Below, one piece after another: positions 14 to 59,300 of a stretch of DNA of 64,000 nt. Location of the stretch: assembly GCF_030384885.1 (NCBI RefSeq), contig NZ_CP128613.1, one strand, 5' to 3'. The stretch is from Escherichia coli (lineage in GTDB: Bacteria; Pseudomonadota; Gammaproteobacteria; Enterobacterales; Enterobacteriaceae). The notes beneath the pieces were generated by a model. That model worked only from the letters and a program-made list of their open reading frames with translations. It did not search any database and was not told the DNA's origin. Numbering within the stretch: position 1 is the stretch's first letter; each line of letters begins with the position of its first letter. A program made the translations under genes and the position numbers.

Positions 14-1418
<1,405 letters not shown>

Positions 1419-2932: not shown

Positions 2933-2962
2933 TACGTTCGCCAAACGCTGAATAAATCATCA

Positions 2963-2997: not shown

Positions 2998-3045
2998 ATG
3001 ATTTAATAGATAGTATTCAGTGTATGTATGAGTTCCACACCCATT

Positions 3046-3852: not shown

Positions 3853-4000
3853 TCATCTGATTTACAAAACACGCTAATTCGTCTTCCATAAACCATGACG
3901 ATTAAGATTTATACATAATGCGCTGCATTGAGGAATTCCCTGAATGTGATGCAAATCACTTCAAAGAGTGAGCAACAGTCAGTATCATCATGTGAGTTAA

Positions 4001-4034
4001 ACCCTCGCCGCCTGACGGTGAGGGTTTTCTTTTG
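4001..4034 (+). terminator. putative intrinsic terminator in rna–rnk intergenic region
   Basis: 10-bp stem with one mismatch (accctcgccg / cggtgagggt), 5-nt loop, then a T-rich run. Confidence 0.4.
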
Positions 4035-4081
4035 GGTATGTTTATCTGCGACACTCGCAGTACCGACGACATGGAGTAAAA

Positions 4082-4492
4082 ATGTCCAGACCAACTATCA
4101 TCATTAACGACCTGGATGCCGAACGCATCGATATTCTGCTGGAGCAACCTGCCTATGCTGGTTTGCCAATCGCCGACGCGTTAAACGCAGAGTTGGATCG
4201 CGCCCAAATGTGTTCGCCAGAAGAGATGCCACACGACGTGGTGACAATGAACAGCCGGGTTAAATTCCGCAATCTTAGCGATGGCGAAGTGCGTGTGCGC
4301 ACGCTGGTGTATCCGGCTAAAATGACTGACAGCAATACTCAGCTTTCTGTTATGGCTCCGGTAGGTGCCGCACTGCTGGGGCTGCGCGTTGGCGATTCCA
4401 TTCACTGGGAACTTCCGGGCGGCGTTGCAACCCACCTTGAAGTGCTGGAACTCGAATACCAGCCAGAAGCTGCTGGCGACTACCTGCTTTAA
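4082..4492 (+). CDS. rnk: regulator of nucleoside diphosphate kinase (GreA/GreB-like)
   Basis: 136-aa ORF recognised as Rnk. Confidence 0.88.
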
Positions 4493-4847
4493 TCCCATCT
4501 GCACAAGCGACAACTCGCTTTGCCCAGAGGATGCACTCGCATCCTCTTTCCGCTCAAATATCAACCAGATTTATCATTTTGCTCTTAAGCACAGCATTCT
4601 AATCTGAACTGGTTATTCATCTGCGGAACCCCATATGAGCGAAGCTCTCAGTATCACTGCGTTTTATATATTTATAGCAGCTATTATTGTTGCTGCAGTG
4701 CTATACCTTGAACAACGCTGGTAGTACCTGGTTTTATTTATTTTCCAGATCAATCGCAAATTCAGATCGAATCAGCCTCGCAAATCATAGATTCATAATC
4801 AATAATGTGCTGTTATGTATACATGCAAAAACAAGGAGAGAATGCTT

Positions 4848-5276
4848 ATGTACAAAACAATCATTATGCCAGTGGATGTATTTGAAATGGAATTGAGCGA
4901 CAAAGCTGTTCGCCACGCTGAATTCCTCGCCCAGGATGATGGAGTTATTCATCTACTTCACGTGCTACCAGGCTCAGCCAGCCTGAGCCTGCACCGTTTT
5001 GCCGCTGATGTGCGCCGTTTTGAAGAGCATCTGCAACATGAAGCAGAAGAACGTTTGCAAACGATGGTCAGCCACTTCACCATCGATCCTTCCCGCATTA
5101 AACAACATGTCCGTTTTGGTAGTGTGCGGGATGAAGTCAATGAGTTGGCAGAAGAACTGGGGGCTGATGTTGTCGTTATCGGTTCGCGCAACCCATCGAT
5201 TTCGACCCATCTGTTAGGTTCTAACGCCTCAAGCGTTATCCGCCACGCCAATCTGCCGGTGCTGGTCGTTCGCTAA
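4848..5276 (+). CDS. uspG: universal stress protein G
   Basis: 142-aa ORF recognised as UspG; start at [10 protein letters not shown] with AAGGAGAG RBS 8 nt upstream; the longer ORF from 4815 is rejected. Confidence 0.85.
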
Positions 5277-5289
5277 TAGATAAAAGTAT

Positions 5290-5375
5290 TTATGTCGCCC
5301 TGCCCGGAGCCATCCCGGCGGGGCTTTTTATTGCAATAAAAAAGCCGCCAGGTTTGACCCCGGCGGCTAAGCAAT
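5290..5375. terminator. probable bidirectional terminator region between convergent uspG and ahpF
   Basis: two GC-rich imperfect inverted repeats (ccggcgggg-type) flanked by T-run on one side and A-run on the other. Confidence 0.4.
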
Positions 5376-5397
5376 TGCAGGTGAATCTTACTTCTTC

Positions 5398-6963
5398 TTA
5401 TGCTGTTTTGGTGCGAATCAGGTAGTCAAAAGCACTCAGAGAAGCTTTGGCACCTTCGCCAGTGGCGATGATGATCTGCTTGTACGGAACCGTCGTACAG
5501 TCACCCGCAGCGAACACGCCTTTGACGTTGGTTTCGCATTTCGCATCAATGATAATCTCGCCCATGCGGTTACGTTCGACTGCGCCTTCGAGCCAGTTGG
5601 TGTTCGGCAGCAGACCAATCTGGACGAAAATACCGGCCAGTTCGATGTTGTGAATATCGCCGCTGACACGATCTCGATATTCCAGACCTACGACTTTGCT
5701 ACCGTCGCCTTTCACTTCCGTGGTTTGCGCATTCAGAATAATGTCGACGTTTTTCAGGCTGCGCAGTTTGTCCTGCAGAACCTGGTCGGCTTTCATTTCT
5801 GGCGCAAATTCCAGCAGCGTTACGTGCTCAACGATACCCGCCAGGTCGATTGCCGCTTCCACGCCGGAGTTACCGCCGCCGATAACCGCTACGCGTTTAC
5901 CTTTAAACAGCGGGCCGTCGCAGTGCGGGCAGTAGGTCACGCCTTTGGTGCGATACTGATCTTCGCCCGGAACGTTCATGTTGCGCCATTTTGCACCGGT
6001 CGCCACGATAATGCTGCGTGCTTTCAGTACCGCGCCAGAAGCTGTTTCAATCTGATGCAGGCCACCTTCAACCGCTGCCGGGATCAGTTTGCTGGCGCTC
6101 TGGCTGTCGATCACATCAACGTCGTATTCATCAACGTGAACTTTCAGCGCACCTGCCAGTTTCTGGCCTTCGGTCTTCGGTACAGAAATGTAGTTTTCGA
6201 TATCAACGGTATCGAGGATCTGACCACCAAAACGTTCGCCCATCAAACCAGTACGGATACCTTTACGTGCGGAGTAAATTGCTGCCGCTGCACCCGCCGG
6301 GCCGGAACCGACGATTAATACGTCATAAGCATCACGCTTGTTCAGCTCTTCTGCCGCACGTTTTTCCGCGCCAGTATCAATTTTGGCGACGATTTCAGTC
6401 AACGTCATGCGACCCTGACCAAACTCTTTCCCGTTTACGAACACTGCCGGAACGCCCATCACGTTGCGATCGGTGATTTCGTTCTGGAAGGTGCCGCCGT
6501 CAATTGCAGTGTGCTTGATGCGCGGGTTCAGTACGCTCATCAGGTTCAGCGCCTGCACCACATCCGGGCAGTTGTGGCAAGAGAGCGAGTAATAGGTTTC
6601 GAATTCAAAATCACCGTCAATATGGCGAATCTGCTCCAGCAGAGACTGCGCTTCTTTCGACGGATGACCACCGGTCCACAACAACGCCAGTACCAGCGAG
6701 GTAAACTCGTGGCCCAGCGGGGAACCTGCAAAACGTGGCCCCTGGTTGGAACCTGGGTTAGTGATCAGGAAAGACGGCTTACGCACCGGCAAGCTGTTAT
6801 CTTCTTTAAAGGTGACTTTGTCTGACAGTTCTGCGATTTCAGCCAACAGTTCCTTGATTTCTGCCGATTTAGCGCTGTCATCCAGCGTGGCAATTAACTC
6901 AACAGGCTTGGTCAATTTCTCAAGGTAAGCCTTGAGTTGAGTTTTCATATTTGTGTCGAGCAT
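5398..6963 (-). CDS. ahpF: alkyl hydroperoxide reductase subunit F (flavoprotein)
   Basis: ORF recognised as AhpF; start at MLDTNMKTQ (521 aa) supported by AGGAGA RBS; upstream in-frame ATGs at 6993 lack an RBS. Confidence 0.92.
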
Positions 6964-7133
6964 GTTTATCTCCTGGGCTTTAAACATCATCATGCAAGCG
7001 GCCTCTGCGGCTACCTGGATGCAGCTTGCATCATGGTGCGGGGAAGAAAATCGGGTGCCGCAGCACCCGATTAATTAGGTGAATTTCCGAAGTATTTCGC
7101 GCCGGAGTTGGTAGCGCGAAAGACAAAGGAAAT

Positions 7134-7697
7134 TTAGATTTTACCAACCAGGTCCAGAGACGGAGCCAGAGTTGCTTCACCTTCTTTCCATTTAGCCGGG
7201 CAAACTTCACCTGGGTGAGAAGCTACGTACTGTGCTGCTTTGATTTTACGCAGCAGGTCAGACGCGTCACGGCCAATGCCTTCAGCGGTAACTTCGATTG
7301 CCTGGATGATACCCTGCGGGTCAACAACGAAGGTTGCACGGTCAGCCAGACCTTCATCTTCACGCATGTTGTCGAAGTTACGGGTCAGGGCGCCAGTCGG
7401 GTCGCCGATCATCGCATATTTGATTTTAGCGATAGTTTCAGAGCTGCTGTGCCATGCTTTGTGGGTGAAGTGAGTATCGGTAGATACTGCGTATACATCT
7501 ACGCCCAGTTTCTGCAGTTCTTCGTAGTGGTCAGCAACGTCACCCAGTTCGGTCGGGCATACGAAAGTAAAGTCAGCCGGGTAGAAGAAGAAGACACTCC
7601 AGCGGCCTTCGGTATCTTTTTCGGTGATTTCGATGAATTCGCCGTTTTTGAATGCCTGGTTTTTAAAAGGTTTAATTTTGGTGTTAATCAAGGACAT
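7134..7697 (-). CDS. ahpC: alkyl hydroperoxide reductase subunit C (peroxiredoxin)
   Basis: 187-aa ORF recognised as AhpC (2-Cys peroxiredoxin). Confidence 0.95.
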
Positions 7698-8069
7698 CTA
7701 TACTTCCTCCGTGTTTTCGATGAGATGTAAGGTAACCAATTTTTGCCGATTCGGCTAATGCGTTTCCATTATCAAATCGATAAGTTTTACCTTACAACCG
7801 TCGTAAGACAACTTTGTGAACTTTGCACCGCCAGTGGCGATAAAAAGTAAAATGGGCCCCCTTTCCAGGTGACCGTGTAATCTGAACTACCCTTTGGTAT
7901 CTTCAGCGCCTGCCTGCAGGCTGTGGTGTTGCCCTTACAAATGCAACAACGACATGGATTACAACACCCTCATAAACAAAGGGCAATCACCTGATCTAAG
8001 CTCTTACCTATGACAGTGATAGGTTATGCCTTTTACTCCATTTTTGCACTGACTGAAAAGGACAAATTA

Positions 8070-8816
8070 ATGTTAAAAAAGATACTTTTACTGGCTCTGC
8101 TTCCTACAATCGCCTTTGCAGAGGAACTTCCTGCTCCGGTAAAAGCGATTGAAAAACAGGGTATTAAGATCATCAAAACGTTCGATGCCCCCGGCGGAAT
8201 GAAAGGTTATCTCGGCAAGTATCAGGATATGGGCGTCACCATCTACCTGACTCCAGATGGTAAGCACGCTATCTCTGGTTACATGTACAACGAGAAAGGT
8301 GAAAACCTGAGTAACATGCTTATCGAAAAAGAAATTTATGCGCCAGCCGGACGCGAAATGTGGCAACGGATGGAACAATCGCACTGGCTCCTCGACGGTA
8401 AAAAAGACGCGCCAGTCATAGTCTACGTTTTCGCCGATCCGTTCTGCCCATATTGTAAACAGTTCTGGCAGCAGGCGCGCCCGTGGGTTGATTCTGGCAA
8501 AGTACAGTTGAGAACATTGTTGGTTGGGGTTATCAAACCAGAAAGTCCGGCGACAGCCGCGGCAATTCTGGCCTCTAAAGATCCCTCAAAAACCTGGCAA
8601 GAATATGAAGCCTCTGGCGGCAAACTTAAGCTAAATGTGCCTACAAACGTAAGTACAGAGCAAATGAAAGTGTTAAGCGACAACGAGAAACTCATGGACG
8701 ATCTGGGGGCAAATGTCACACCGGCTATCTATTACATGAGTAAGGAAAATACGCTGCAACAGGCCGTGGGGTTGCCCGATCAGAAAACGCTTAATATCAT
8801 TATGGGAAATAAATAG
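8070..8816 (+). CDS. dsbG: periplasmic thiol:disulfide interchange protein DsbG
   Basis: ORF recognised as DsbG with CPYC active site; start at [11 protein letters not shown] (signal peptide) with AAGGA RBS; diverges from ahpC. Confidence 0.88.
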
Positions 8817-9023
8817 AAGATAATTCATGGGTGGTTGAAATACATCCTTGCTTTTCAACCATTCTAAAAACGCATGAATTGCTTCTTCCCCTCCTGACAA
8901 CTGTGTTACTTTAGAAAAACTTAATCCAGAGTTAAGTAATAAAACATAACAAATATAAATAAAACAGTAGAATCATTGATTACAAGAATGATTTATGGAC
9001 AAGATAATATAACGGAGTATGTT

Positions 9024-9926
9024 ATGGCTAATCTTTATGATTTAAAAAAATTCGACCTCAATTTACTGGTCATATTTGAGTGCATTTATCAACACCTCAG
9101 CATTAGCAAAGCAGCAGAATCATTATATATAACGCCATCTGCCGTGAGTCAGTCGTTACAACGTTTACGCGCGCAATTTAATGACCCGTTATTCATCCGC
9201 TCAGGGAAAGGTATCGCGCCGACTACAACAGGGTTAAATCTGCATCACCATCTTGAGAAAAATCTCCGAGGCCTTGAACAAACGATCAATATCGTTAATA
9301 AGTCTGAGCTGAAGAAAAATTTTATTATCTACGGTCCTCAGCTTATTTCTTGTAGTAATAACAACATGCTAATCCGCTGTCTAAGACAAGATACTTCAAT
9401 CGATATAGAATGCCATGACATACTGCTTTCAGCTGAAAACGCCGAAGAATTGTTAGTTCAACGCAAAGCTGACCTGGCAATCACGCTACAGCCGGTGATT
9501 AGCCGCTCCGTCATCTGTATGCCATTACACACCATTCGCAATTCTCTTATTTGTAGCAATAAACATCCTCGTATTACTGATACCAGTACCCATGAACAAA
9601 TTATGGCCGAAGAATTCACCCTGCTAATATCTAAATCAGCAGGAATTGATGAAATTCAAGTAGACATAGACGAACGATTTATGAACCGTAAAATTTCGTT
9701 TCGCAGTTCCTCTTTACTCACCATAATAAATAGCATTTCTGTTACTGACTTATTGGGAATTGTCCCTACCGAGCTGTACGATTTACATCGCAATTTCCTG
9801 AAACTAAAAGAAATAAAGTTGAAGCATCCTCTTCCTGCGGTCAAGCTTTATATTTCCTATAACAAATACTCGTTAAATAATCTGGTCTTCTCCCGTTTCA
9901 TAGACCGCTTAAATGATAGCTTCTGA
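9024..9926 (+). CDS. ybdO: LysR-family transcriptional regulator
   Basis: AT-rich ORF with N-terminal LysR-type HTH region; position matches ybdO; start at MANLYDLKKF with GGAG RBS. Confidence 0.78.
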   Translation: MANLYDLKKFDLNLLVIFECIYQHLSISKAAESLYITPSAVSQSLQRLRAQFNDPLFIRSGKGIAPTTTGLNLHHHLEKNLRGLEQTINIVNKSELKKNFIIYGPQLISCSNNNMLIRCLRQDTSIDIECHDILLSAENAEELLVQRKADLAITLQPVISRSVICMPLHTIRNSLICSNKHPRITDTSTHEQIMAEEFTLLISKSAGIDEIQVDIDERFMNRKISFRSSSLLTIINSISVTDLLGIVPTELYDLHRNFLKLKEIKLKHPLPAVKLYISYNKYSLNNLVFSRFIDRLNDSF

Positions 9927-10070
9927 TTAATCATCAATGGATAATATTATATTTATACAATGAATTCATTGTATAAATATAAAATAATGTGCTCTATCTT
10001 GCTTCGTTTACCCTATAATTAGCGGATTCATCTCACGAGTCACCCAGTAACGTTCAGAGAGCGTTTTCAG

Positions 10071-11291
10071 ATGTCTATTTATAAAATCCCTCTTCCGCTG
10101 AATATTTTAGAAGCTGCACAGGAACGTATTACCTGGACACTTAACACCTTGCCCCGTGTTTGCGTTTCTTTTTCGGGGGGTAAAGATTCCGGATTAATGC
10201 TGCATCTTACCGCCGAACTTGCCAGAAAATTGGGAAAAAAAATCTGCGTTTTGTTTATCGACTGGGAAGCACAGTTCTCTTGTACCATCGACTATGTACA
10301 GTCGTTACGCGAGTTGTATACCGACGTTATTGAAGAGTTTTACTGGGTAGCACTCCCACTCAAGACGCAAAATTCCCTTTCACAATACCAACCAGAATGG
10401 CAGTGCTGGGAATCTGATGTCGAATGGGTGCGTCAGCCCCCGCAAGAAGCGATAACCGATCCTGACTTTTTCTCCTTTTACCAGCCAGGCATGACCTTCG
10501 AACAATTTGTACGTGAGTTTGCCGAATGGTTTTCACAAAAACGTCCGGCGGCGATGATGATCGGCATCCGTGCGGATGAGTCCTACAACCGTTTTGTCGC
10601 CATCGCCAGTTTAAGTAAACAACGTTTTGCCGATGATAAGCCCTGGACCACAGCCGCACCAGGCGGTCACAGCTGGTACATTTACCCCATCTACGACTGG
10701 AAAGTAGCTGATATCTGGACCTGGTATGCTAATCATAAAGCCCTATGTAACCCATTGTATAATATCATGTATCAGGCAGGCGTCCCCCTGCGTCATATGC
10801 GAATTTGCGAACCTTTTGGCCCGGAGCAACGGCAAGGATTATGGCTCTATCACGTTATCGAACCGGATCGCTGGGCTGCTATGTGCGCACGAGTTAGCGG
10901 GGTAAAAAGTGGCGGCATTTACGCCGGACATGACAATCATTTTTATGGTCATCGGAAAATCCTCAAACCAGAGCATTTAGACTGGCAAGAGTATGCATTA
11001 TTGCTGCTTGATAGCATGCCGGAGAAAACGGCTGAGCATTACCGCAACAAAATTGCCATTTACTTGCATTGGTATCAGAAAAAAGGTGTCGAGGTGCCAC
11101 AGACCCAGCACGGGGACATTGGCGCGAAAGATATCCCCTCCTGGCGGCGAATTTGCAAGGTGTTACTGAATAACGATTACTGGTGTCGGGCATTATCATT
11201 TAGCCCAACCAAAGCGAAGAATTATCAGCGTTATAACGAACGGATAAAAGTAAAACGTCAGGAGTGGGGAATACTATGCAACAACAATTAA
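10071..11291 (+). CDS. ybdN: PAPS-reductase-like (PP-loop) protein of unknown function
   Basis: 406-aa ORF; SFSGGKDS PP-loop motif near N-terminus; recognised as YbdN. Confidence 0.85.
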   Translation: MSIYKIPLPLNILEAAQERITWTLNTLPRVCVSFSGGKDSGLMLHLTAELARKLGKKICVLFIDWEAQFSCTIDYVQSLRELYTDVIEEFYWVALPLKTQNSLSQYQPEWQCWESDVEWVRQPPQEAITDPDFFSFYQPGMTFEQFVREFAEWFSQKRPAAMMIGIRADESYNRFVAIASLSKQRFADDKPWTTAAPGGHSWYIYPIYDWKVADIWTWYANHKALCNPLYNIMYQAGVPLRHMRICEPFGPEQRQGLWLYHVIEPDRWAAMCARVSGVKSGGIYAGHDNHFYGHRKILKPEHLDWQEYALLLLDSMPEKTAEHYRNKIAIYLHWYQKKGVEVPQTQHGDIGAKDIPSWRRICKVLLNNDYWCRALSFSPTKAKNYQRYNERIKVKRQEWGILCNNN

Positions 11292-11893
11292 CGCAGGATT
11301 TAACCCAATTTCTCGCCAGCTTGCCGGAAGACGATCGCATCAAAGCGATTAACGAAATCCGCCTGGCGATCCATCAGGTTAGCCCCTTTCGTGAAGAGCC
11401 AGTAGATTGTGTTCTGTGGGTTAAAAACAGCCAACTTATGCCAAATGATTACAACCCAAACAATGTGGCACCGCCCGAGAAAAAACTGTTACAAAAATCC
11501 ATTGAGATAGATGGTTTTACCCAACCTATTGTGGTCACGCACACAGATAAAAATGCTCTGGAAATCGTGGATGGCTTTCACCGTCATGAAATTGGTAAAG
11601 GCTCTAACACGTTAAAAATGCGATTAAAAGGATATTTACCGGTTACCTGTCTGGAAGGAACACGTAACGAACGCATCGCCGCGACTATTCGTCATAACCG
11701 CGCTCGTGGACGCCACCAAATCACAGCCATGTCAGAAATCGTTCGTGAACTCAGCCAGTTGGGATGGGACGACAATAAAATCGGCAAAGAGCTGGGTATG
11801 GACAGCGACGAAGTGTTGCGCCTGAAACAAATTAACGGCCTGCAAGAGTTATTTGCTGACCGTCAATATTCCCGCGCCTGGACAGTAAAATAA
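11264..11893 (+). CDS. ybdM: ParB/sulfiredoxin-like domain protein of unknown function
   Basis: 209-aa ORF overlapping ybdN 3' end by 28 nt; recognised as YbdM. Confidence 0.82.
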   Translation: MGNTMQQQLTQDLTQFLASLPEDDRIKAINEIRLAIHQVSPFREEPVDCVLWVKNSQLMPNDYNPNNVAPPEKKLLQKSIEIDGFTQPIVVTHTDKNALEIVDGFHRHEIGKGSNTLKMRLKGYLPVTCLEGTRNERIAATIRHNRARGRHQITAMSEIVRELSQLGWDDNKIGKELGMDSDEVLRLKQINGLQELFADRQYSRAWTVK

Positions 11894-13054
11894 TTACAGC
11901 TGGCGCAGGCGTTCAGCTGCCGCCAGCAACGTCGATTCCTTCTTGGCAAAACAGAGACGAATGAGCTTATGGGGGAAGGGATCGGCGCAAAATACCGACA
12001 GCGGGATCGCCGCCACGCCATGCTCCCGCGTCAGCCACTGGCAAAACTCAACGTCATCCAGCGAAGAAACCGCGCTGTAATTCACCAGCAAAAAGTAAGT
12101 GCCTTCGCAGGGTAAAATCTCCAGCCGACTCTCACTTAAGGCGTTCACCAGAATATCGCGCTTCTGGCGATAAAAGTCCGGTAACGCAAGATAGTGTTCA
12201 GGTTCTGCTCGCAGCATATCGGCAAGGGCCAGCTGCGCCGGGGTATTCACCGAAAAAGTCAGATACTGATGCACTTTGCGGATCTCGGCGCTGATGGGCG
12301 CAGGCGCAACACAATAACCCACTTTCCAGCCGGTCATATGATAAGTCTTGCCAAACGATGACACCACCACCGCCCGCTCACGCAGTTGCGGATGCGCCAG
12401 CACACTGGCATGGCCCTGCTGTGAAAAGTTGATATGCTCGTAAACTTCATCGCTAATAACAAAAATCTCGTGCCCGGCAATTGCCTGCCACAAAGCGGAA
12501 AAATCAGTCTGCTGCCAGACAGTAGCACTGGGGTTATGCGGGGTGTTAAGGATCACCAGTCGGGTGCGCTCGCTTAACAATGCGGCAAATTCCTGCCAGT
12601 CCACGCGAAAATGCGGTGGTTGCAGTGCAATACGTTTCACTATTCCACCCGCAAGCATGATGGCGGGGGCGTAACTGTCATAGCTGGGATCAAAGCAAAT
12701 CACTTCATCGCCATTGCGCACCAATGCAGTAATCGCTGCGTACAGCGCTTCCGTCGCCCCTGCTGTTACGGTGATATCGCTGTCGACATCTGGTTGATAG
12801 CCATACAGCCGTTCCGTTTTCTGAGCAATCGCCTCGCGTAATGCCGGCACGCCGGTCATGGGTGCGTATTGGTTTGCTCCCTGGGCAACGTGGTACGCCA
12901 GCCGTTCCTGCAAATAGCGCGGACCATCAAAATCAGGAAAGCCTTGCGACAGGTTAATCGCCTGGTGTTGCTGCGCCAGTGCGCTCATCTGGGTGAAAAT
13001 AGTGGTGCCAAGTTGTGGAAGTTTGCTTTGTGGAATCAGAGAGTTATTTGTCAT
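11894..13054 (-). CDS. ybdL: PLP-dependent methionine aminotransferase
   Basis: ORF recognised as YbdL (aminotransferase class I); start at MTNNSLIPQ (386 aa). Confidence 0.86.
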   Translation of the reverse strand: MTNNSLIPQSKLPQLGTTIFTQMSALAQQHQAINLSQGFPDFDGPRYLQERLAYHVAQGANQYAPMTGVPALREAIAQKTERLYGYQPDVDSDITVTAGATEALYAAITALVRNGDEVICFDPSYDSYAPAIMLAGGIVKRIALQPPHFRVDWQEFAALLSERTRLVILNTPHNPSATVWQQTDFSALWQAIAGHEIFVISDEVYEHINFSQQGHASVLAHPQLRERAVVVSSFGKTYHMTGWKVGYCVAPAPISAEIRKVHQYLTFSVNTPAQLALADMLRAEPEHYLALPDFYRQKRDILVNALSESRLEILPCEGTYFLLVNYSAVSSLDDVEFCQWLTREHGVAAIPLSVFCADPFPHKLIRLCFAKKESTLLAAAERLRQL

Positions 13055-13162
13055 TTTTATTGTGCCTGACAAAGTTGCGTGTTGAAGCCACTATAACACG
13101 ATGCTAGTATTTGGCAATCAAGACGTTTAGATGTCTAAATAAAACAATAAGGACAACACAAC

Positions 13163-14251
13163 ATGCCTCACAATCCTATCCGCGTCGTCGTTGGCCCTGC
13201 TAACTACTTTTCTCATCCCGGCAGTCTCAATCACCTGCATGATTTTTTCACTGATGAACAGCTTTCTTGCGCAGTGTGGATCTACGGTGAACGTGCACTT
13301 GCCGCGGCGCAAACCAAACTTCCAACGGCGTTTGAACTGCCAGGAGCAAAGCATATTTTGTTTCGCGGTCATTGCAGTGAAAGCAATGTGCAACAACTGG
13401 CGGCTGAGTCCGGTGACGATCGCAGCGTGGTGATTGGCGTCGGCGGCGGCGCACTGCTCGACACCGCGAAAGCCCTCGCCCGCCGTCTCGGTCTGCCGTT
13501 TGTTGCCGTTCCAACGATTGCCGCTACCTGCGCTGCCTGGACACCACTCTCTGTCTGGTACAACGATGCCGGACAGGCGCTACATTATGAGATTTTTGAC
13601 GACGCCAATTTTATGGTGCTGGTGGAACCGGAGATAATCCTCAATGCGCCGCAAGAATATCTGCTGGCAGGAATCGGTGACACGCTGGCGAAATGGTATG
13701 AAGCGGTGGTGCTGGCTCCTCAGCCAGAAACGTTGCCACTAACCGTGCGGCTGGGAATCAATAATGCGCAGGTCATTCGCGACGTCTTGTTAAACAGTAG
13801 CGAACAGGCGCTTGCCGATCAGCAAAATCAGCAGTTAACGCAATCATTTTGCGATGTGGTCGATGCGATTATCGCCGGAGGCGGAATGGTCGGTGGTCTG
13901 GGCGATCGTTTTACGCGTGTGGCGGCGGCCCATGCCGTGCATAACGGTCTGACTGTACTGCCACAAACCGAGAAATTTTTCCACGGCACCAAAGTCGCTT
14001 ACGGTATTCTGGTACAAAGCGCCTTGCTGGGTCAGGATGATGTGCTGGCGCAATTAACCGGGGCGTATCAGCGTTTTCATCTGCCGACCACGCTGGCGGA
14101 GCTGGAAGTGGATATCAATAATCAGGCAGAGATCGACAAAGTGATTGCGCACACCTTGCGTCCGGCGGAATCCATTCATTACCTGCCGGTCACGCTGACA
14201 CCAGATACGTTGCGTGCAGCGTTCGAAAAAGTGGAATCGTTTAAAGCCTGA
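13163..14251 (+). CDS. ybdH: iron-containing alcohol/hydroxycarboxylate dehydrogenase family protein
   Basis: 362-aa ORF with GGGxxxD glycerol-dehydrogenase-like motif; recognised as YbdH. Confidence 0.84.
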   Translation: MPHNPIRVVVGPANYFSHPGSLNHLHDFFTDEQLSCAVWIYGERALAAAQTKLPTAFELPGAKHILFRGHCSESNVQQLAAESGDDRSVVIGVGGGALLDTAKALARRLGLPFVAVPTIAATCAAWTPLSVWYNDAGQALHYEIFDDANFMVLVEPEIILNAPQEYLLAGIGDTLAKWYEAVVLAPQPETLPLTVRLGINNAQVIRDVLLNSSEQALADQQNQQLTQSFCDVVDAIIAGGGMVGGLGDRFTRVAAAHAVHNGLTVLPQTEKFFHGTKVAYGILVQSALLGQDDVLAQLTGAYQRFHLPTTLAELEVDINNQAEIDKVIAHTLRPAESIHYLPVTLTPDTLRAAFEKVESFKA

Positions 14252-14260
14252 CGTACAAAT

Positions 14261-14458
14261 TTAGCAGCAGCGCGCGCCGCCTTTTCCACCGTAGCGCGCG
14301 TCCTGCCGCTCACGGAAAAACTCCTCGTAGGTCATCGGCGTTTGATCGGGATGGTTAACCCGCATATGTTCGACATAGTTGTCGTAATCAGGCATACCAA
14401 TCATCAGCTTCGCCGCCTGACCTAAATATTTTCCGGCTTTTGCCAGTGAATCAAACAT
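14261..14458 (-). CDS. ybdD: small DUF466-family protein co-transcribed with cstA
   Basis: 65-aa ORF recognised as YbdD; immediately downstream of cstA on the same strand. Confidence 0.75.
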
Positions 14459-14599
14459 CAATACCTCCGGTAATCAGGTTGCTGAGAGAGTGCATTAATA
14501 GCTATCAACGCGCTCGGTCAGTCCCCTCGCCCCACCGGGGAGAGGGTTAGGGTGAGGGGGAACCCCAGGCACTACGCCAACATCCCCCTCACTCTGACT

Positions 14600-16705
14600 T
14601 TAGTGCGCGCCTTTCGCCTGCGCCTCGATCTCCTCGACATTTTCCGGCATTGGCTCATACGGCGTTTCTTTCGCCGTTGGCTTCGGATCTTTCAATGCTG
14701 CCAGTGCCGTCTTAATCGAGAACAGCGCCAGAACCACCACAACCACCATAAAGAAGATGGTTAATCCGGCATCCAGACGGTTGTTGAACACCAGTTGCGC
14801 CAGTTGTGACTCAGTATACTGCGACGGAATATTGCCGCTGTCGATCATTGCCTGGAACTTGTTAGCAATCGCCAGAAAACCGACTTTCGCATCCGGGCTA
14901 AACGCTTTCTGCCAGCCTGCGGTCAGGGTACAAATCAGCAGCCAGGCCGTTGGTACCAGCGCCACCCAGGCGTAACGTTGACGTTTCATCTTGAACAACA
15001 CCACGGCACAGAGCATCAGCGCCATCCCTGCCAGCATCTGGTTGGCAATACCAAACAGCGGCCACAGAGTGTTAATACCGCCCAGCGGATCGACCACGCC
15101 CTGATGCAGAAAGTAACCCCAAGCCAGCACGCACAGCGCCGTTGCCAGCAGGTTAGCAGGCAGTGAATCGGTCCGTTTCAGGCCCGGAGAAACCACGCCC
15201 AGCAGATCCTGCAACATAAAGCGCGCAGCACGCGTACCCGCATCCACCGCCGTCAGAATAAACAGTGCTTCAAACAGAATGGCGAAGTGATACCAGAACG
15301 CCACATCCATCATGCCACCCAGCGCGCCGTGCAGAATGTAGGCCATCCCCACCGCCAGGGTCGGCGCACCGCCCGCACGGGAAATGATCGACTGTTCACC
15401 CACTTCGCTGGCAATCTGATTTAACGTATCTGGCGTAATGCTAAAGCCCCAGCTACTCACTACCTGCGCAGCAGATGCCACTACATCCGCCGTCCCCGCC
15501 GGAGCCAGCACCGCCATCGGGCTGTTCATCGCGAAGTACACGCCCGGATCGATGATACAGGCAGAAACCAGTGCCATAATCGCCACGAAGGATTCCATCA
15601 ACATCCCGCCGTAGCCGATAAAGCACGCCTGACCTTCGTTCGCCAGCATCTTCGGTGTGGTGCCGGAAGAGATCAGCGCATGGAAGCCAGACACCGCGCC
15701 ACAGGCGATAGTAATAAACAGGAACGGGAACAGATTACCGGTCCATACCGGGCCAGTGCCATCTACAAACTTGGTCAGCGCAGGCATGGTCAGCGTCGGA
15801 CGCATAATCAAAATGCCTACCGCCAGACCGACGATAGTCCCGATTTTCAGGAAGGTAGAGAGGTAGTCACGCGGAGCCAGCAGCAACCACACCGGCAGAA
15901 CCGCCGCCACAAAACCGTAACCCACCAGCATCCAGGTCAGCTGCACGCCGGTAAAGTCAAAGTACGGTGCCCAGGTCGGGCTTTCTGCCACCCAGCCGCC
16001 AGAGATAATGGCGAAAATAAGGAATACCAGGCCAATCACCGACACTTCCCCAATGCGGCCTGGACGCAGATAGCGCAGGTAAATCCCCATGAACAGCGCC
16101 AGCGGAATGGTGAACGCAACGGTATACGTTCCCCACGGGCTATGAGTCAGGGCTTTCACCACGATCATCGCCAGTACTGCAAGAATAATGACCATGATCA
16201 TAAAGCAGGCCACCAGCGCAATCACCCCGGCGGTTGGCCCCATCTCTTCTTTAACAAGCTCGCCCAGCGAGCGACCGTCACGGCGCGTGGAAACAAACAG
16301 CACCATGAAATCCTGCACCGCACCGGCGAGAACCACCCCGGCAAGTAGCCAGATCATCCCCGGTAGGTAGCCCATTTGCGCTGCCAGTACCGGCCCCACC
16401 AACGGGCCTGCTCCGGCAATGGCCGCAAAATGGTGACCGAACAGCACTTTCTTGTCCGTCGGCACATAGTCCAGCCCGTCGTTATGGCGCACCGCTGGCG
16501 TCATACGCGTCGGGTCAACCGCCAATACATTTTTGGCGATATAAAGACCATAAAAACGGTAAGCGATCAGATAGATACAGACCGACGCCACCACAATCCA
16601 CAGCGCGTTGATCTGTTCCCCACGATTTAAAGCAATGTATCCCAGAGCAAATGCTCCCATTACAGAGAGCACTGTCCAGACGAGGTATTTCCCTGATTTG
16701 TTCAT
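14600..16705 (-). CDS. cstA: carbon starvation protein A (peptide/pyruvate transporter family)
   Basis: 701-aa polytopic membrane protein recognised as CstA. Confidence 0.92.
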   Translation of the reverse strand: MNKSGKYLVWTVLSVMGAFALGYIALNRGEQINALWIVVASVCIYLIAYRFYGLYIAKNVLAVDPTRMTPAVRHNDGLDYVPTDKKVLFGHHFAAIAGAGPLVGPVLAAQMGYLPGMIWLLAGVVLAGAVQDFMVLFVSTRRDGRSLGELVKEEMGPTAGVIALVACFMIMVIILAVLAMIVVKALTHSPWGTYTVAFTIPLALFMGIYLRYLRPGRIGEVSVIGLVFLIFAIISGGWVAESPTWAPYFDFTGVQLTWMLVGYGFVAAVLPVWLLLAPRDYLSTFLKIGTIVGLAVGILIMRPTLTMPALTKFVDGTGPVWTGNLFPFLFITIACGAVSGFHALISSGTTPKMLANEGQACFIGYGGMLMESFVAIMALVSACIIDPGVYFAMNSPMAVLAPAGTADVVASAAQVVSSWGFSITPDTLNQIASEVGEQSIISRAGGAPTLAVGMAYILHGALGGMMDVAFWYHFAILFEALFILTAVDAGTRAARFMLQDLLGVVSPGLKRTDSLPANLLATALCVLAWGYFLHQGVVDPLGGINTLWPLFGIANQMLAGMALMLCAVVLFKMKRQRYAWVALVPTAWLLICTLTAGWQKAFSPDAKVGFLAIANKFQAMIDSGNIPSQYTESQLAQLVFNNRLDAGLTIFFMVVVVVLALFSIKTALAALKDPKPTAKETPYEPMPENVEEIEAQAKGAH

Positions 16706-52619: not shown

Positions 52620-53283
52620 TTAGTTAGTTCAAACTCAAAGAGTGATGTATCGCCTTCTGTTATTATTTATCAATAAAACAGGGAAGACCTTATTGGTCGT
52701 CTGAAATCGACGGTTATTCATTTTCGGATATTTACGAGATATTTAGATATGCAATTTAATCAAATTCGTGTTTCTACCAATTGTAGAGCACAATGCTATT
52801 ACTAAATTTTCATCACTATAAAAGAATCGGCTATAATATAAAGCGCAGTCAGGCATCATTAATCTCTATATTATTCACACAATCTATTTATCAAGTGAAT
52901 TTGATAAATTCCTAATTTAAAATATTCACTATTAAGCCAGCGTCTAACGACGTTAAGATGGCAATGTGCAGATCATGTTATCAGGGTGGGGCGGTAGCGT
53001 ATATTCCTTATACAAACCATCATTCATTTCAATAATGTTTATTGAGTTATTTATTATTGTGAATAAAAAGACATTACAAATATTGGTTTGACTTTGCATA
53101 TCAGGTGTTTTTTTTGTTACTCGATGTAATATACGAGCCTGTCCTTAATAACATCGTGAACCCGTCAGTTGAGTTTGTGATTATTTTGTTGAGTCAACAG
53201 CCCCCTGTTTCTCTGAAGTAAAATCCCGGACAAAATCATCACATAACCATGACACTTTTCTGATATTCCCCGGTAACGCCTGA

Positions 53284-54534
53284 AGCCTGCCCGCTTACCT
53301 GAAGGCGCAGTCTGCGGGCAGGCACCGGATAAGTGAAGAGACTGACCAGTATGCCGGAGGCCACCGGCTGAAACAGGCCGGAAACACGCAGTATGACTAT
53401 GACGCCGCAGGCCGGATGGTCAGCCGCACCAGGCACCGTGACGGCTACCGCCCGGAAACAGAGCGGTTCCGGTGGGACAGCCGGGACCAGCTGACCGGGT
53501 ATTGCAGCGCACTGGGGGTGCAGTGGGAATACCGCCACGACGCCAGCGGCAGACGGACGGAAAAACGCTGCGACCGGAAGAAAATCCGTTTTACGTACCT
53601 GTGGGACGGCGACAGTATTGCGGAAATGCGGGAATACCGGGATGATAAACTGTACAGCGTACGGCACCTGGTGTTTAACGGCTTTGAGCTGCTGAGTCAG
53701 CAGTTCAGCCGGGAAAGGCAGCCGCATCCGTCCGTGGCCCCGCAGTGGGTGACGCGGACGAGCCATGCGGTAAGCGACCTGACAGGCCGCCCGGTGATGC
53801 TCTTTAACAGTGAAGGTAAAACCGTCTGGCGGCCGGGACAGACCAGCCTGTGGGGGCTGGCACTCAGCCTGCCCGCAGACACCGGCTACCCGGACCCGCG
53901 CGGGGAACTGGACCCGGAAGCCGACCCCGGCCTGCTGTATGCAGGACAGTGGCAGGATGCAGAATCCGGGCTGTGCTATAACCGGTTCCGGTACTACGAG
54001 CCGGAAACCGGGATGTACCTGGTGAGTGACCCCCTGGGGCTGGCCGGGGGGGAGCAGACTTACCGGTATGTGCCTAATCCATGTGGGTATGTTGATCCTT
54101 TGGGATTAGCAACGTGTCCCATAATCAGACAGCGGGTGCTTGCTAACCTCGAAGCCAGTCGGGCAGCAAGAGTTACATCAAATTTTGGTAAGCCTCTGGT
54201 TCAGGGAAATAAAACGATTGGCGATAAAGTAAGGGATATAATTGCCAAAGAGAGGGGAACCACTCTAATTGAACAAAATTATAGAGTGACAGGAGGATTA
54301 AGGCGTATTGACGTTGTTGATGGAGTAACGGGTATTGAATCTAAAGTCGGTCGAACAGGGATAACTGCCCGAGTACGGCAAGAGGTAGCCCGTGATATTA
54401 AGATTTTGAGAAGTGGGCAACTTGATCAAATTGAATGGGTGTTTACAAGAAGTCCAACTACAGGGAAGATTGGGCCAACTAAACCACTTGAAGATCTGTT
54501 AAATAAACATGGTATACCGATTATTTATCGATAA
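53284..54534 (+). pseudogene. 5'-truncated Rhs remnant: ~275 aa of Rhs core C-terminus plus a ~141-aa polymorphic C-terminal toxin domain (orphan rhs-CT)
   Basis: open frame from 53284 with YD-repeat-like residues and the terminal DPxGL(x)nDPLGL motif; C-terminal domain begins at 54109 where GC content drops; first ATG at 53416; the >1000-aa N-terminal part of a full Rhs is absent. Confidence 0.7.
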
Positions 54535-54545
54535 GGAGTGATAGT

Positions 54546-55103
54546 GTGAAACTCAAACCGATTGGTGATTTTTTAATTAATAGTGGGTTCGTGAAAAATA
54601 GTGACACTGACTTTTATAAAGTGCATGATAAGTTTGTATACTGTATAAATTTTCAAAAAAAGAGCACGGGTGATATTTTTTTTATAAACACAGGTGTTCA
54701 TCCTATATTCGAAGGTTTTTGCAATGAACTACCAACAAAAGAAATAGATTGCTACATTCGTAATCGTGTGTGTGATGGACTAAGTATATCTTTGCTGAAT
54801 TCTTTTGAAGGTGATGAATTTGTTATCAATGAGATAAAGGATAAAGCGTTTTGTTTTTTTGAATACTTTGATTCATTGAATAAAATATTCGATAGTATTC
54901 GTGTTGTCGATATTGAAGAGAGAAATATTTGCGATGAGCTAAGTAATGTAAGTAGCGTAAGATTAGCTTTGATGTGTATGAACTACCAATATGAGAAAAA
55001 AAATTTGGGACTTGCTTCAGATTTTGCGAACTATGGTCTTGCTATATCTAGAGGCCCGGTACCGAAAAAAGCATTTAAGGATATGATAAAAAAAATAGAG
55101 TGA
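54546..55103 (+). CDS. putative cognate immunity protein of the Rhs-CT toxin
   Basis: 185-aa AT-rich ORF starting with GTG 7 nt after an AGGAG RBS and 12 nt after the rhs-CT stop; typical position and composition of Rhs immunity genes; no recognisable domain. Confidence 0.5.
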   Translation: MKLKPIGDFLINSGFVKNSDTDFYKVHDKFVYCINFQKKSTGDIFFINTGVHPIFEGFCNELPTKEIDCYIRNRVCDGLSISLLNSFEGDEFVINEIKDKAFCFFEYFDSLNKIFDSIRVVDIEERNICDELSNVSSVRLALMCMNYQYEKKNLGLASDFANYGLAISRGPVPKKAFKDMIKKIE

Positions 55104-55109: not shown

Positions 55110-55425
55110 ATCCGCTGTAATGCCAATTGTCTGTGTACAGAGAAGGTTAACGGCCTGGATGAGACAATCGTCTACACATGGGACGCTGCAGGCCGCCTGG
55201 CAGAAATCATCGCCCCGGAAGGGAAAACGCAGTACGCGTATGACAAATCCGGCAGGCTGACGGGTATCTTCAGCCCGGACGGCATATCACAGCGCACCGG
55301 CTACGACGAACGCGGGCGGGTGAATGTCGCCACGCAGGGCAGACGGGCCATTGAATACCACTACCCAGGGAAAGATCACGTAACGCTGCTTTTTTGTACT
55401 AAACAATTCGAATTTTATGTTTAAA
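55110..55425 (+). pseudogene. internal Rhs core fragment (YD-repeat segment) without start codon
   Basis: translates to ...VYTWDAAGRLAEIIAPEGKTQYAYDKSGRLTGIFSPDGISQRTGYDERGR..., i.e. Rhs YD repeats, ending in a short divergent tail; GC-rich. Confidence 0.5.
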
Positions 55426-55509: not shown

Positions 55510-56643
55510 ATGGAACTTAAAAAATTGATGGAACATATTTCTATTATCCCCGATTACAGACAAGCCTGGAAAGTGGAACATAAATTATCGGACATTCTAC
55601 TGTTGACTATTTGCGCCGTTATTTCGGGTGCAGAAGTTTGGGAAGATATAGAGGATTTTGGGGAAACACATCCCGATTTTTTGAAGCAATATGGTGATTT
55701 TGAAAATGGTATTCCTGTTCACGATACCATTGCCAGAGTTGTATCCTGTATCAGTCCTGCAAAATTTCACGAGTGCTTTATTAACTGGATGCGTGACTGC
55801 CATTCTTCAGATGATAAAGACGTCATCGCAATTGATGGAAAAACACTCCGGCATTCTTATGACAAGAGTCGCCGCAAGGGAGCGATTCATGTCATTAGTG
55901 CGTTCTCAACAATGCACAGTCTGGTCATCGGACAGATCAGGACGGATGAGAAATCCAATGAAATTACAGCTATCCCAGAACTTCTTAACATGCTGGATAT
56001 TAAAGGAAAAATCATCACAACTGATGCGATGGGTTGCCAGAAAGATATTGCAGAGAAGATACAAAAACAGGGAGGTGATTATTTATTCGCTGTAAAAGGA
56101 AACCAGGGGCAGCTAAATAAAGCCTTTGAGGAAAAATTTCCGCTGAAAGAATTAAATAATCCAGAGCATGACAGTTACGCAATGAGTGAAAAGAGTCACG
56201 GCAGAGAAGAAATCCGTCTTCATATTGTTTGCGATGTCCCTGATGAACTTATTGATTTCACGTTTGAATGGAAAGGTCTGAAGAAATTATGCGTGGCAGT
56301 CTCTTTTCGGTCAATAATAGCAGAACAAAAGAAAGAGCCAGAAATGACGGTCAGATATTATATCAGTTCTGCTGATTTAACCGCAGAGAAGTTCGCCACA
56401 GCAATCCGAAACCACTGGCACGTGGAGAATAAGCTGCACTGGCGTCTGGACGTGGTAATGAATGAAGACGACTGCAAAATAAGAAGAGGAAATGCAGCAG
56501 AATTATTTTCAGGGATACGGCACATCGCTATTAATATTTTGACGAATGATAAGGTATTCAAGGCAGGGTTAAGACGTAAGATGCGAAAAGCAGCCATGGA
56601 CAGAAACTATCTGGCGTCAGTCCTTGCTGGGAGCGGGCTTTAG
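55510..56643 (+). CDS. H-repeat-associated protein (ISAs1-family transposase)
   Basis: 377-aa ORF recognised as YhhI/YdcC/YbfD-type H-rpt protein; AAGGAGAA RBS; sits downstream of the Rhs fragments as in Rhs elements. Confidence 0.85.
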
Positions 56644-56681
56644 TGAGTAGGCCACCGGAACCTCCCCGACAGCCTCTCGCA

Positions 56682-56715
56682 GAACCGTACGTGAAACTCT
56701 CGCTTCATACGGCTC
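56682..56715 (-). ncRNA. group II intron catalytic domain V
   Basis: minus-strand sequence GAGCCGUAUGAAGCGAGAGUUUCACGUACGGUUC matches the domain V consensus (AGC triad, GUAU...ACGUAC helix) just 3' of the RT stop. Confidence 0.75.
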
Positions 56716-56718
56716 CCG

Positions 56719-58041
56719 TCAGGCAAACGCGCTTCCTGGTCCTGCTTTCCAGTGGGCAAACAACTCCGGCTTCTCTTTTGACAGCCTTTCCATTAGCTGA
56801 CACGCCTTCGTCTTTCTATACCGCAGGGTTTTATATTTCTTTCTCGCCCACGCAATCAGCGTCAGATTAATATATCTGCATACTTTCTTCATCGCTGATT
56901 TGTGGTATCTCGCGTAATAATTCAGCCACCCCGATATTATCGGATTCAGCCACTTCGCAATATCTTCGAGACTCATCTCCACCCTGCGTCTGATCCACAG
57001 TTTCCTGAGTTTTCCAATCATGCCTTTCTGCGCACGGTTACTCGCCGCCGGGCTGAAACTCGTAAAGAGGTTCCCCCGCCGGTGGTTACGTGCTCTTCGC
57101 GCTCTGAACGTATACCCCAGAAAATCAAACTGCACTGTTTCATGGTTCGCCTGTCGTTCGCTGTCTTTGCAGTAAACTATTTTCGTTTTCTCCGGATGTA
57201 ATTCCAGTCCACATTCCTGAAAACGTTTTGCCAGCTTATTCAGTAATTCCTCTGCCTGTTGTTTACTGCCACAATGAATTAATCCATCATCTGCATAACG
57301 GCACCAGGGAATTTCCGGATAATGTAACGTCAGCCATTTATCAAACACATAGTGCAGAAATAAATTCGCCAGTACCGGGCTGATGACTCCACCCTGTGGC
57401 GTACCTTTATTTCTTTCCTTCAGTGTTCCATCCGGCATCTGCACCGGCGCTGTCAGCCAGCGGCGAATAGACAGTCTTACCCATTTATCCGCACAATGTT
57501 TATCTACTGCCCTGAGTAATAAATCGTGGGGGATATTATCGAATAACCCTTTAATATCAAACTCAAGACACCAGTCGTATTGCCAGCAACGTTTTCTGGT
57601 GACTGCTATTGCATCCAGCGCTGATTTTCCATGCCGGTATCCGTATGAATCATTCAGGAAATAACGCTCCACTAATGGTTCAAACGTTACCAGCACCGTC
57701 ATCTGCGCTATTCGATCGCTTACTGTCGGTATTCCTAAAAGTCTTTTGCTGCCATCCTTCTTCGGAATTTCCACCGCACGCACTGGCGGCGGCATCCAGC
57801 TTCCCGACGATAACCTGTTCCAGATTTTGTACAGATTTCCTTTCAGATCCCGCTCAAAATCTTTCAGCGTCTGGTTATCCACTCCGGCAGCTCCGGCATT
57901 CGCCTTTATCCGCCGGTACGCTTCCACCACATGCAATTTACTGACCTGAAACGGTTTTGTCTGTTCACACACAGCCTCCTCCTGCCTACAGTTGGGCTGT
58001 GATGCAGACTGCCCGACGCTGTCCCTTCGCTCCACGTTCAT
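56719..58041 (-). CDS. group II intron-encoded reverse transcriptase/maturase
   Basis: RT motifs including GAAGVD, GTPQGGVISP and YADD; start placed at MNVERRDS (about 440 aa); the 505-aa ORF to 58236 probably over-extends into intron domains I–III. Confidence 0.82.
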   Translation of the reverse strand: MNVERRDSVGQSASQPNCRQEEAVCEQTKPFQVSKLHVVEAYRRIKANAGAAGVDNQTLKDFERDLKGNLYKIWNRLSSGSWMPPPVRAVEIPKKDGSKRLLGIPTVSDRIAQMTVLVTFEPLVERYFLNDSYGYRHGKSALDAIAVTRKRCWQYDWCLEFDIKGLFDNIPHDLLLRAVDKHCADKWVRLSIRRWLTAPVQMPDGTLKERNKGTPQGGVISPVLANLFLHYVFDKWLTLHYPEIPWCRYADDGLIHCGSKQQAEELLNKLAKRFQECGLELHPEKTKIVYCKDSERQANHETVQFDFLGYTFRARRARNHRRGNLFTSFSPAASNRAQKGMIGKLRKLWIRRRVEMSLEDIAKWLNPIISGWLNYYARYHKSAMKKVCRYINLTLIAWARKKYKTLRYRKTKACQLMERLSKEKPELFAHWKAGPGSAFA

Positions 58042-58543
58042 TACAAACGCTTCCTCACTACTACGAACAGCTCTGCCCCGGTTTCGCACATCGATACTCT
58101 CATACTCATAATTTCGGTTATTTGTATTTCTCTCTTGACATTGCGACGACCGGTTCCCGTAGTTCCTGCAAAGAGCCCGATACAGCGTCATGCCTGCTAT
58201 ACACCGGACATCATTCACGCAGCATTCGGAATTCACCCGTAAATTAATCCCGGCGGTATCACGAAACCTCCGGTTTTGATGTCACTTAGGACTAACGACG
58301 TTTCAACACAGGTTCGGGTTTACTCATCTCACTGTATCTCACATAGGATCAGATCTCGTCTGATCGTTCCCCCTGCGCTCACTACCATGGCTCTTTACCA
58401 CAGCAGCCGGGGTTGTTTGGGACCGACTTCCGACAGCAGATCCCGGTGGGCCTGCCACCATCTCTTCACAAGCTTATGCTTATTACATGCAAAACGTCCC
58501 GTTTTGCATCTTTGTGCCTACGGCACACCGTAATCTTTCCCTG

Positions 58544-59300
58544 TGTCATTAGTGCGTTCTCAACAATGCACAGTCTGGTTATCGGACAGATCAAGACGGA
58601 TGAGAAATCCAATGAAATTACAGCTATCCCTGAACTTCTTAACATGCTGGATATTAAAGGAAAAATCATCACAACTGATGCGATGGGTTGCCAGAAAGAT
58701 ATTGCAGAGAAGATACAAAAACAGGGCGGTGATTATTTATTCGCTGTAAAAGGAAATCAGGGGCGGCTTAATAAAGCCTTTGAGGAAAAATTTCCACTGA
58801 AAGAATTAAATAATCCAGAGCATGACAGTTACGCCATTAGTGAAAAGAGTCACGGCAGAGAAGAAATCCGTCTTCATATTGTTTGCGATGTCCCTGATGA
58901 ACTTATTGATTTCACGTTTGAATGGAAAGGTCTGAAGAAATTATGCGTGGCAGTCTCCTTTCGGTCAATAATAGCAGAACAAAAGAAAGAGCCAGAAATG
59001 ACGGTCAGATATTATATCAGTTCTGCTGATTTAACCGCAGAGAAGTTCGCCACAGCAATCCGAAACCACTGGCACGTGGAGAATAAGCTGCACTGGCGTC
59101 TGGACGTGGTAATGAATGAAGACGACTGCAAAATAAGAAGAGGAAATGCAGCAGAATTATTTTCAGGGATACGGCACATCGCTATTAATATTTTGACGAA
59201 TGATAAGGTATTCAAGGCAGGGTTAAGACGTAAGATGCGAAAAGCAGCCATGGACAGAAAGTATCTGGCGTCAGTCCTTGCGGGGAGCGGGCTTTCGTAA
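58544..59300 (+). pseudogene. 5'-truncated second copy of the H-repeat transposase gene
   Basis: near-identical to residues ~129-377 of the 55510-56643 ORF from [11 protein letters not shown] onward; lacks the N-terminal third. Confidence 0.8.

Follow-up and report, generated by a model that had tools for sequence, protein, structure and literature searches.

Anatomy of the orphan Rhs cassette and the adjoining deletion

We analyzed a 64,000-nucleotide stretch of an Escherichia coli chromosome (NCBI RefSeq assembly GCF_030384885.1, contig NZ_CP128613.1), hereafter called the window, with the focus on a putative toxin–immunity cassette built around an orphan Rhs gene. The cassette lies between cusS and nfrB; cusCFBA and cusRS are found upstream of it, and nfrBA is located downstream. 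Its first gene is an open reading frame (ORF) of 372 residues on the plus strand (53416–54534), which begins with an ATG at 53416 and ends with a TAA at 54532–54534; the frame is open from 53284, and this ATG is its earliest start codon. The Rhs-derived sequence starts at a deletion junction (53296/53297), and 53297–54072 (+) is a remnant of the Rhs core, the C-terminus of the YD-repeat shell, identified by matches to TIGR03696, NF041261, and Pfam RHS_repeat. The core part of the ORF matched TIGR03696 (Rhs_assc_core) at 1.1e-18 and RHS_repeat at 4.6e-5, the latter representing one YD repeat, and the match to NF041261 (RHS_core) covered only model positions 1148–1261 of 1261. Because only the C-terminal end of the Rhs core was matched, the ORF is an orphan tail without a shell or PAAR domain: the 231 residues at its start come from the very C-terminal end of the core, the PAAR/shell part is missing, and there is no Rhs ORF of >1400 residues among the ORFs of the window. 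An earlier sequence-only reading of this DNA had likewise described the gene as an orphan lacking the Rhs shell.

The core remnant is followed by the PxxxxDPxGL demarcation motif, PNPCGYVDPLGL (54073–54108, +; DPLGL at 54094–54108), which falls at the end of the TIGR03696 match and, as read from the sequence, separates the conserved core from the variable toxin tip. The tip (54109–54531) starts with ATCPIIRQ directly after DPLGL and comprises the 141 codons between DPLGL and the TAA, exactly the domain delimited by the earlier reading, and the peptide that had been quoted from it, GGLRRIDVVDGVTGIESKVG, is present. The described shift from a GC-rich core to an AT-richer domain was also seen: the guanine–cytosine (GC) content, calculated in windows of 150 nucleotides, was 0.64–0.68 in the core (53775–54074), 0.41–0.47 in the tip, and 0.29–0.35 in the next gene, i.e., a change from about 0.65 to 0.41 between core and tip. 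Tip residues 1–21 (54109–54171, +) form a poorly conserved linker, and most homologues align from about residue 28 onward. The predicted PD-(D/E)xK nuclease toxin domain consists of tip residues 22–141 (54172–54531, +); residues 22–24, the first ones modeled, had a predicted local distance difference test (pLDDT) score of <50.

The next gene (54546–55103, +), which begins with a GTG codon 14 nucleotides downstream of the toxin, encodes a DUF4304 protein of 185 residues and is the probable cognate immunity gene. Its GC content is about 0.30, and a Shine–Dalgarno sequence, AAGGAG, can be recognized by eye at 54533–54538 (+), 7 nucleotides before the GTG. Residues 7–75 of the protein matched positions 2–75 of the 115 positions of PF14137 (DUF4304) at 4.9e-9, and its homologues are annotated with PF14137. 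The protein has a beta-sheet at its N-terminus and a helical bundle at its C-terminus.

A comparison with E. coli 2013C-4282 indicated how the cassette became stranded. The two sequences are identical over 5.2 kb, and 99.9–100% identical in this region as a whole, apart from one deletion. In 2013C-4282, the gap between cusS and nfrB contains, in order, vgrG, a DcrB-related (Eag/DUF1795-type) chaperone gene, a gene for a 1601-residue Rhs protein, an immunity gene, the orphan (here 516 residues), the DUF4304 gene, a core fragment, and ISAs1. The window lacks 8,947 bp of this region, from 67 bp upstream of vgrG to the inside of the orphan (2013C-4282 locus 3788–12734). The lost stretch had held vgrG and the chaperone gene, the full-length rhs with its immunity gene, and the orphan's 5′ part. 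At the junction (53296/53297) there is a 2-bp microhomology (TA); the former vgrG upstream region now adjoins the orphan, 120 nucleotides before the first ATG of its ORF, and about 0.8 kb of core homology is left at the locus. The cassette is stranded, as the deletion took vgrG and the main rhs along with the chaperone gene.

Strain PapRG-06-3 carries this tip, with 134 of 141 residues identical, at the end of a full-length, VgrG/Eag-linked main Rhs protein of 1611 residues, and DUF4304 follows it there; therefore, the tip is a genuine type VI secretion system (T6SS) payload elsewhere. In the other two strains whose loci were compared, it is an orphan. Relative to the full-length allele, the toxin has a ratio of nonsynonymous to synonymous substitution rates (dN/dS) of 0.17, and the immunity gene one of 0.27. 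Of 5426 complete E. coli genomes, 114 (∼2%) have the tip and immunity gene as a pair, with one copy in each. The related strains share vgrG, a DUF1795/DcrB-related chaperone gene, a PAAR-Rhs gene with a variable tip, an immunity gene, and orphan tips with the vgrGO1-eagR-rhs-CT effector islands of E. coli (Ma et al., 2017, summarized in PMC6730261), whereas the vgrG-eagR-rhs part is deleted in the window. Ten tips are named for these islands, and that review gives domains for only a few of them, e.g., MPTase4, REase-3, and Toxin_55.

Two further observations were made in these strains. In Nord122 and numerous genomes like it (Nord122 locus 974–5803 and 9682–10221), an internal stop interrupts the island's main rhs, and the DUF4304 gene beside the orphan tip is frameshifted over its C-terminal 25 residues, which suggests that the system is decaying in this lineage. 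In PapRG-06-3, the region downstream of the full-length Rhs gene (locus 11917–15849) holds a gene of the SUKH-3 immunity family and the gene of a second, N-terminally truncated Rhs protein of about 980 residues, accompanied by two small ORFs; these make up a further orphan array, which has a different tip.

The toxin tip: family, predicted fold, and partners

When 1.84 billion representative proteins were searched exhaustively with phmmer, relatives of the tip were detected in 752 clusters at E ≤ 1e-3, including 205 at E ≤ 1e-10. The match was always at the C-terminal end of proteins of about 80 to 3630 residues, and the carriers were Rhs/YD-shell proteins, haemagglutinin/CdiA-type proteins, and one Hint-domain protein. 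In a scan of one genome per species, family members were found in the Enterobacterales (Yersinia, Pectobacterium, and Providencia), in other Proteobacteria (Xanthomonas, Pseudomonas, Acidovorax, and Sphingomonas), and in the Acidobacteria, Planctomycetes, Actinobacteria, and Bacteroidota. These taxa are a minimum, as the scan, which used eight closer sequences as queries, detects only members with IESKVGR or RVRQELARD. Close homologues also occur in Proteus, Morganella, and Providencia, and a tblastn search of plasmids gave only five weak matches, three of them under haemagglutinin/CdiA-type gene annotations. The C-terminal position, varied carriers, and wide taxonomic range therefore indicate that the tip behaves as a polymorphic toxin domain.

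In an alignment of 52 members (35–74% identity), 12 columns were invariant: N34, G38, E55, R65, D68, E77, K79, G81, D96, F112, G122, and P123. The D, the E-x-K, and the G were still invariant in 20 more divergent members. Because D68, E77, K79, and E55 are all invariant in the 52-member alignment, the D…ExK pattern is not a chance match. AlphaFold2, run on the 52-member alignment, gave a confident model with a pLDDT of 93.4 and a predicted template modeling (pTM) score of 0.84. Its elements, in order, are a helix, three strands, a helix, a strand, a helix, and a strand, and they include the alpha-beta-beta-beta-alpha-beta core of the PD-(D/E)xK superfamily. D68 lies on predicted strand 2, and E77 and K79 on predicted strand 3. 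The predicted catalytic residues are encoded, on the plus strand, at 54271–54273 (E55), 54310–54312 (D68), 54337–54339 (E77), and 54343–54345 (K79).

The top structures in a Foldseek search with this model were BamHI, AF1548, and EndoMS. The best matches act on DNA (NucS, SfsA, N.BspD6I, type II restriction enzymes, and the EC869 CdiA-CT DNase), and no tRNase CdiA-CT was among the best 60. The sequence-only reading had interpreted the acidic strand and E-x-K as a PD-(D/E)xK active site and had proposed a profile search and an AlphaFold model as checks. Both were run: the Pfam search gave no significant match and the model has a restriction-endonuclease-like fold. Independent evidence, evolutionary as well as structural, supports the PD-(D/E)xK interpretation: the invariant D, E, and K columns, the AlphaFold2 fold, and the Foldseek matches.

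The earlier reading had also not recognized the domain as one of the named Rhs-CT families and had suggested that it may be a poorly characterized toxin type; no curated profile matched the tip here. No significant Pfam match was found on the toxin when the whole ORF, the 52 members, or the 20 divergent members were scanned, and NCBIfam, PADLOC, and PHROGs gave none on the tip. Among the best 120 profile matches in a collection of 5.8 billion proteins, none had a Pfam domain on the toxin and none had PF15649 (Tox-REase-7). When the PF15649 model was compared with the window protein and with the first sequence of each scanned alignment, nothing was detected even at E ≤ 10, and none of 72 family members scanned singly matched it at E ≤ 0.1. 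The clusters of 10 distant members are named only hypothetical protein.

At the structural level, Tox-REase-7 was the only named family among the close neighbors in AFDB50, the remainder being unnamed Rhs proteins. Foldseek detected five proteins with this name (E values of 2e-12 to 2e-7, template modeling scores of 0.79–0.88, and 28–42% identity), of which A0A7W4V161 was the closest (E value of 2.4e-12; 42% identity in the structural alignment). Tox-REase-7 is a restriction-endonuclease-fold toxin domain carried by Rhs, CdiA, and other proteins; it is one of ten restriction endonuclease (REase) clades and has the signature GxxxE, IxD, ExK, and Q (Zhang et al., 2012, PMC3482391). The tip shares with it the small size, the C-terminal position, the REase fold, the Rhs, filamentous-haemagglutinin, and HINT carriers, the ExK, and a downstream Q (Q91, in RQE). 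It has GxxxRD in place of GxxxE and RRID in place of IxD, and GxxxE occurs in some divergent members of the tip family. The immunity proteins also differ: those listed for Tox-REase-7 are HEAT-repeat, Imm23, and Imm54 proteins, whereas the tip is paired with DUF4304. The tip family is best described as an unmodeled sister or divergent branch of Tox-REase-7.

RdnE, also called IdrD-CT, was considered because close homologues of the tip occur in Proteus, Morganella, and Providencia. RdnE of Proteus mirabilis, which is paired with RdnI, is a proven DNase that requires D, E, and K (Knecht et al., 2025, PMC12483513). Like the tip, it is a PD-(D/E)xK domain of about 140 residues that forms the tip of an Enterobacterales PAAR-Rhs T6SS effector, and its homologues span several phyla. 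We rebuilt the IdrD clade alignment from the source data of Hespanhol 2022 and compared the profiles with hhalign; the probability was 0.8% and only the ExK was aligned, so membership was rejected. The string ESKVG was in none of the 44 supplementary files of Hespanhol 2022. The motif of RdnE is GxGxD-(13)-EVK, with 83 residues after the K, whereas that of the tip is RRxD-(8)-ESKVG, with 62 after the K; RdnI is a helical protein of 305 residues, in contrast to the 185-residue DUF4304 protein. Two structurally characterized pairs, EC869 CdiA-CT(o11)/CdiI (PDB 4g6u) and TseT/TsiT (Tox-REase-5, PDB 7dym), have 13–17% identity to the tip with no sequence-level match, and their delivery domains and immunity folds are unlike those of the tip. 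In a comparison of immunity neighbors, with no direct comparison of profiles, PoNe (Tox-REase-1) differed in its partner, PoNi (DUF1911) or Imm49, the neighbor of the tip being DUF4304. The partners did not place the tip among Tox-REase-1 to -10 either, as DUF4304 and the two other neighbor families described below match no Pfam Imm family.

We also examined the genes downstream of the toxin in 27 related loci. A DUF4304 gene (180–205 residues) was present in 16 of them, spanning several phyla, and directly adjoined the toxin in 15. These loci include four metagenomic Rhs proteins of 2076–3630 residues with toxins that are 54–67% identical to the tip. Because this pairing has been kept, DUF4304 is the probable immunity protein of the tip. 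Downstream of distant toxins (≤50% identity), DUF4304 was replaced by either of two mutually unrelated families of small proteins without a Pfam match (loci L005, L006, L018, L020, L021, and L023–L027). One, of about 108 residues (104–110), accompanies the “ARDWWL” branch of toxins, and the other, of about 175 residues (172–182), occurs in the Actinobacteria, Bacteroidota, and Burkholderiales. The segment after the invariant ARD is IKILRSG in the DUF4304-paired toxins and WWLRRQG in the branch paired with the ∼108-residue protein, and it varies in those paired with the ∼175-residue protein.

Proposed function and alternative explanations

Based on these results, we consider it likely that the locus is an orphan Rhs toxin–immunity cassette, in which the tip is a small metal-dependent PD-(D/E)xK nuclease that is blocked by DUF4304. 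The tip would be a non-specific DNase dependent on Mg2+ or Mn2+ that kills the recipient by cutting its chromosome; a DNase is the most likely form because the structural neighbors act on DNA and because RdnE, PoNe, and the Acinetobacter Tox-REase-7 CdiA2-CT are DNases. E55, D68, and E77 would act as ligands of the divalent metal, with K79 as the presumed activator of the water, and DUF4304 would protect the producer cell by binding and blocking the toxin. At the end of a full-length PAAR-Rhs protein, as in PapRG-06-3, the tip would be enclosed in the Rhs shell, self-cleavage at DPLGL would free it, and the T6SS would fire it on a VgrG spike with the help of the Eag (DUF1795) chaperone. From this locus in the window, it can be neither loaded nor fired after the deletion. 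The remaining uses of the cassette may be immunity to neighbors or kin that fire the same toxin, and provision of a spare tip that could recombine onto another rhs via the 0.8-kb core remnant. For the family as a whole, it is probable, at a somewhat lower level of confidence, that the tip represents a phylum-spanning REase-fold clade of at least 752 clusters (50% identity) outside Pfam and NCBIfam, that DUF4304 is its immunity protein, and that the two unannotated families of ∼108 and ∼175 residues serve its distant branches.

Several observations weigh against this interpretation. There is no significant sequence-profile link between the tip and any characterized nuclease; the best Pfam results were marginal matches of single members (DpnII-MboI, 0.003; Tox-REase-3, 0.03), and neither the single sequence nor the profile found anything among PDB sequences. 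The predicted opposition of D68 and E77, which would make a canonical PD-(D/E)xK metal site, is read from the hairpin register and strand positions of the model. An AlphaFold model of a fused toxin–linker–DUF4304 protein (11 paired rows) reached a pTM of 0.75; its two parts were folded, and the linker was disordered. Such a value would be hard to obtain without a defined mutual arrangement and weakly supports the pairing, but the five models diverged, with mean pLDDT values of 62–77, so the predicted complex is weak evidence. In the literature searched, we found no biochemical or genetic test of the tip family. As for expression, the toxin frame lacks any start codon ahead of 53416, and nothing significant turned up as a promoter of the orphan: 10 promoter-like sites were counted where 5.8 ± 2.3 would be expected, and the scan for promoters and terminators did not exceed the shuffled expectation.

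The substrate is a further point on the same side, as some PD-(D/E)xK toxins cleave tRNA or rRNA and not DNA. The Burkholderia pseudomallei CdiA-CT toxins of this fold are tRNases, and TseTBg (Tox-REase-5) is another precedent. Within the PD-(D/E)xK superfamily, the substrate is not determined by fold alone (bioRxiv 10.1101/2020.02.20.956912), and the strongly conserved basic helix NKxxGDxxRD and the TGKxGPT loop of the tip could hold either nucleic acid. The tip might thus be an RNase, e.g., a tRNase, that halts translation and leaves the DNA intact. We regard this as improbable, given the DNA-acting best structural matches, the lack of a tRNase CdiA-CT among the best 60, and the DNase precedent in Tox-REase-7, the nearest named family.

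The other two alternatives concern the present use of the cassette and not the identity of its domains. Salmonella rhs loci have internal promoters, and their orphans behave like toxin–antitoxin modules (Starsta et al., 2020, PMC7043789). With this precedent, the cassette could be an intracellular module, transcribed from an internal or fused promoter, that modulates how its own host grows; the deletion placed the former vgrG upstream region close to the orphan, and there are two promoter-like sites at 52978–53036. We nevertheless consider such a role very unlikely. The promoter scan was not above chance, there is neither a ribosome-binding site nor a start codon near the toxin domain, and the 372-residue product would drag along the 231-residue core remnant. 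Moreover, because the window is 100% identical to 2013C-4282 over 5.2 kb, the deletion is very recent, too recent for selection for a new role to be readable. The toxin part could instead be a silent, decaying relic, with only the immunity gene, or nothing, functional in the source strain. The loss of the delivery genes from the locus, the state of Nord122 (a main rhs with an internal stop and a DUF4304 gene with a frameshifted C-terminus), and the insertion sequence and group II intron insertions that flank the locus all fit such decay, whereas the intact toxin frame, in which every conserved residue is present, and the dN/dS of 0.17 against the full-length allele do not. On balance, we think it unlikely, although the least so of the three alternatives, and it is compatible with the tip being a nuclease toxin blocked by DUF4304.

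REase-fold tips on Rhs and CdiA proteins are already a well-known class, so the proposed biology is expected and holds little surprise for the specialist. For the tip clade and its DUF4304 partner, we found neither a model nor a publication, the databases searched describe no function for either family, and DUF4304 was not mentioned in the literature searched. The main value of these results is therefore in annotation and as an experimental handle: the locus and its relatives offer a testable assignment for a widespread toxin domain that is now labeled only RHS repeat protein or hypothetical, and for DUF4304, which has no assigned function. If the interpretation is correct, it would provide the first function for DUF4304 and a case in which one toxin fold is neutralized by three unrelated immunity proteins, i.e., material for studying how immunity specificity is re-invented. 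The locus would also be a natural system for studying the persistence of orphan tips and immunity genes after the weapon has been lost.

Neighboring mobile and Rhs-derived elements

A YD-repeat fragment of a further Rhs core, of about 85 codons (55120–55380, +), lies between the immunity gene and an ISAs1 element. It has 89–92% identity to the internal rhs of 2013C-4282, carries a partial-pseudogene annotation in the matching strain, and is cut off ahead of ISAs1 (H-repeat); it is probably the stump of another orphan module. The Rhs element is closed by a transposase gene of the ISAs1 (H-repeat) family (55510–56643, +), and an identical region in NZ_CP027579 is annotated as an ISAs1 family transposase. 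Beyond it, a complete group II intron was identified on the minus strand (56642–58459) with the Rfam models RF01999 (58342–58459) and RF00029 (56642–56717). Its reverse transcriptase/maturase ORF is at 56719–58236, and the intron is flanked by the full ISAs1 copy (55510–56643) and a partial second copy (58413–59300).
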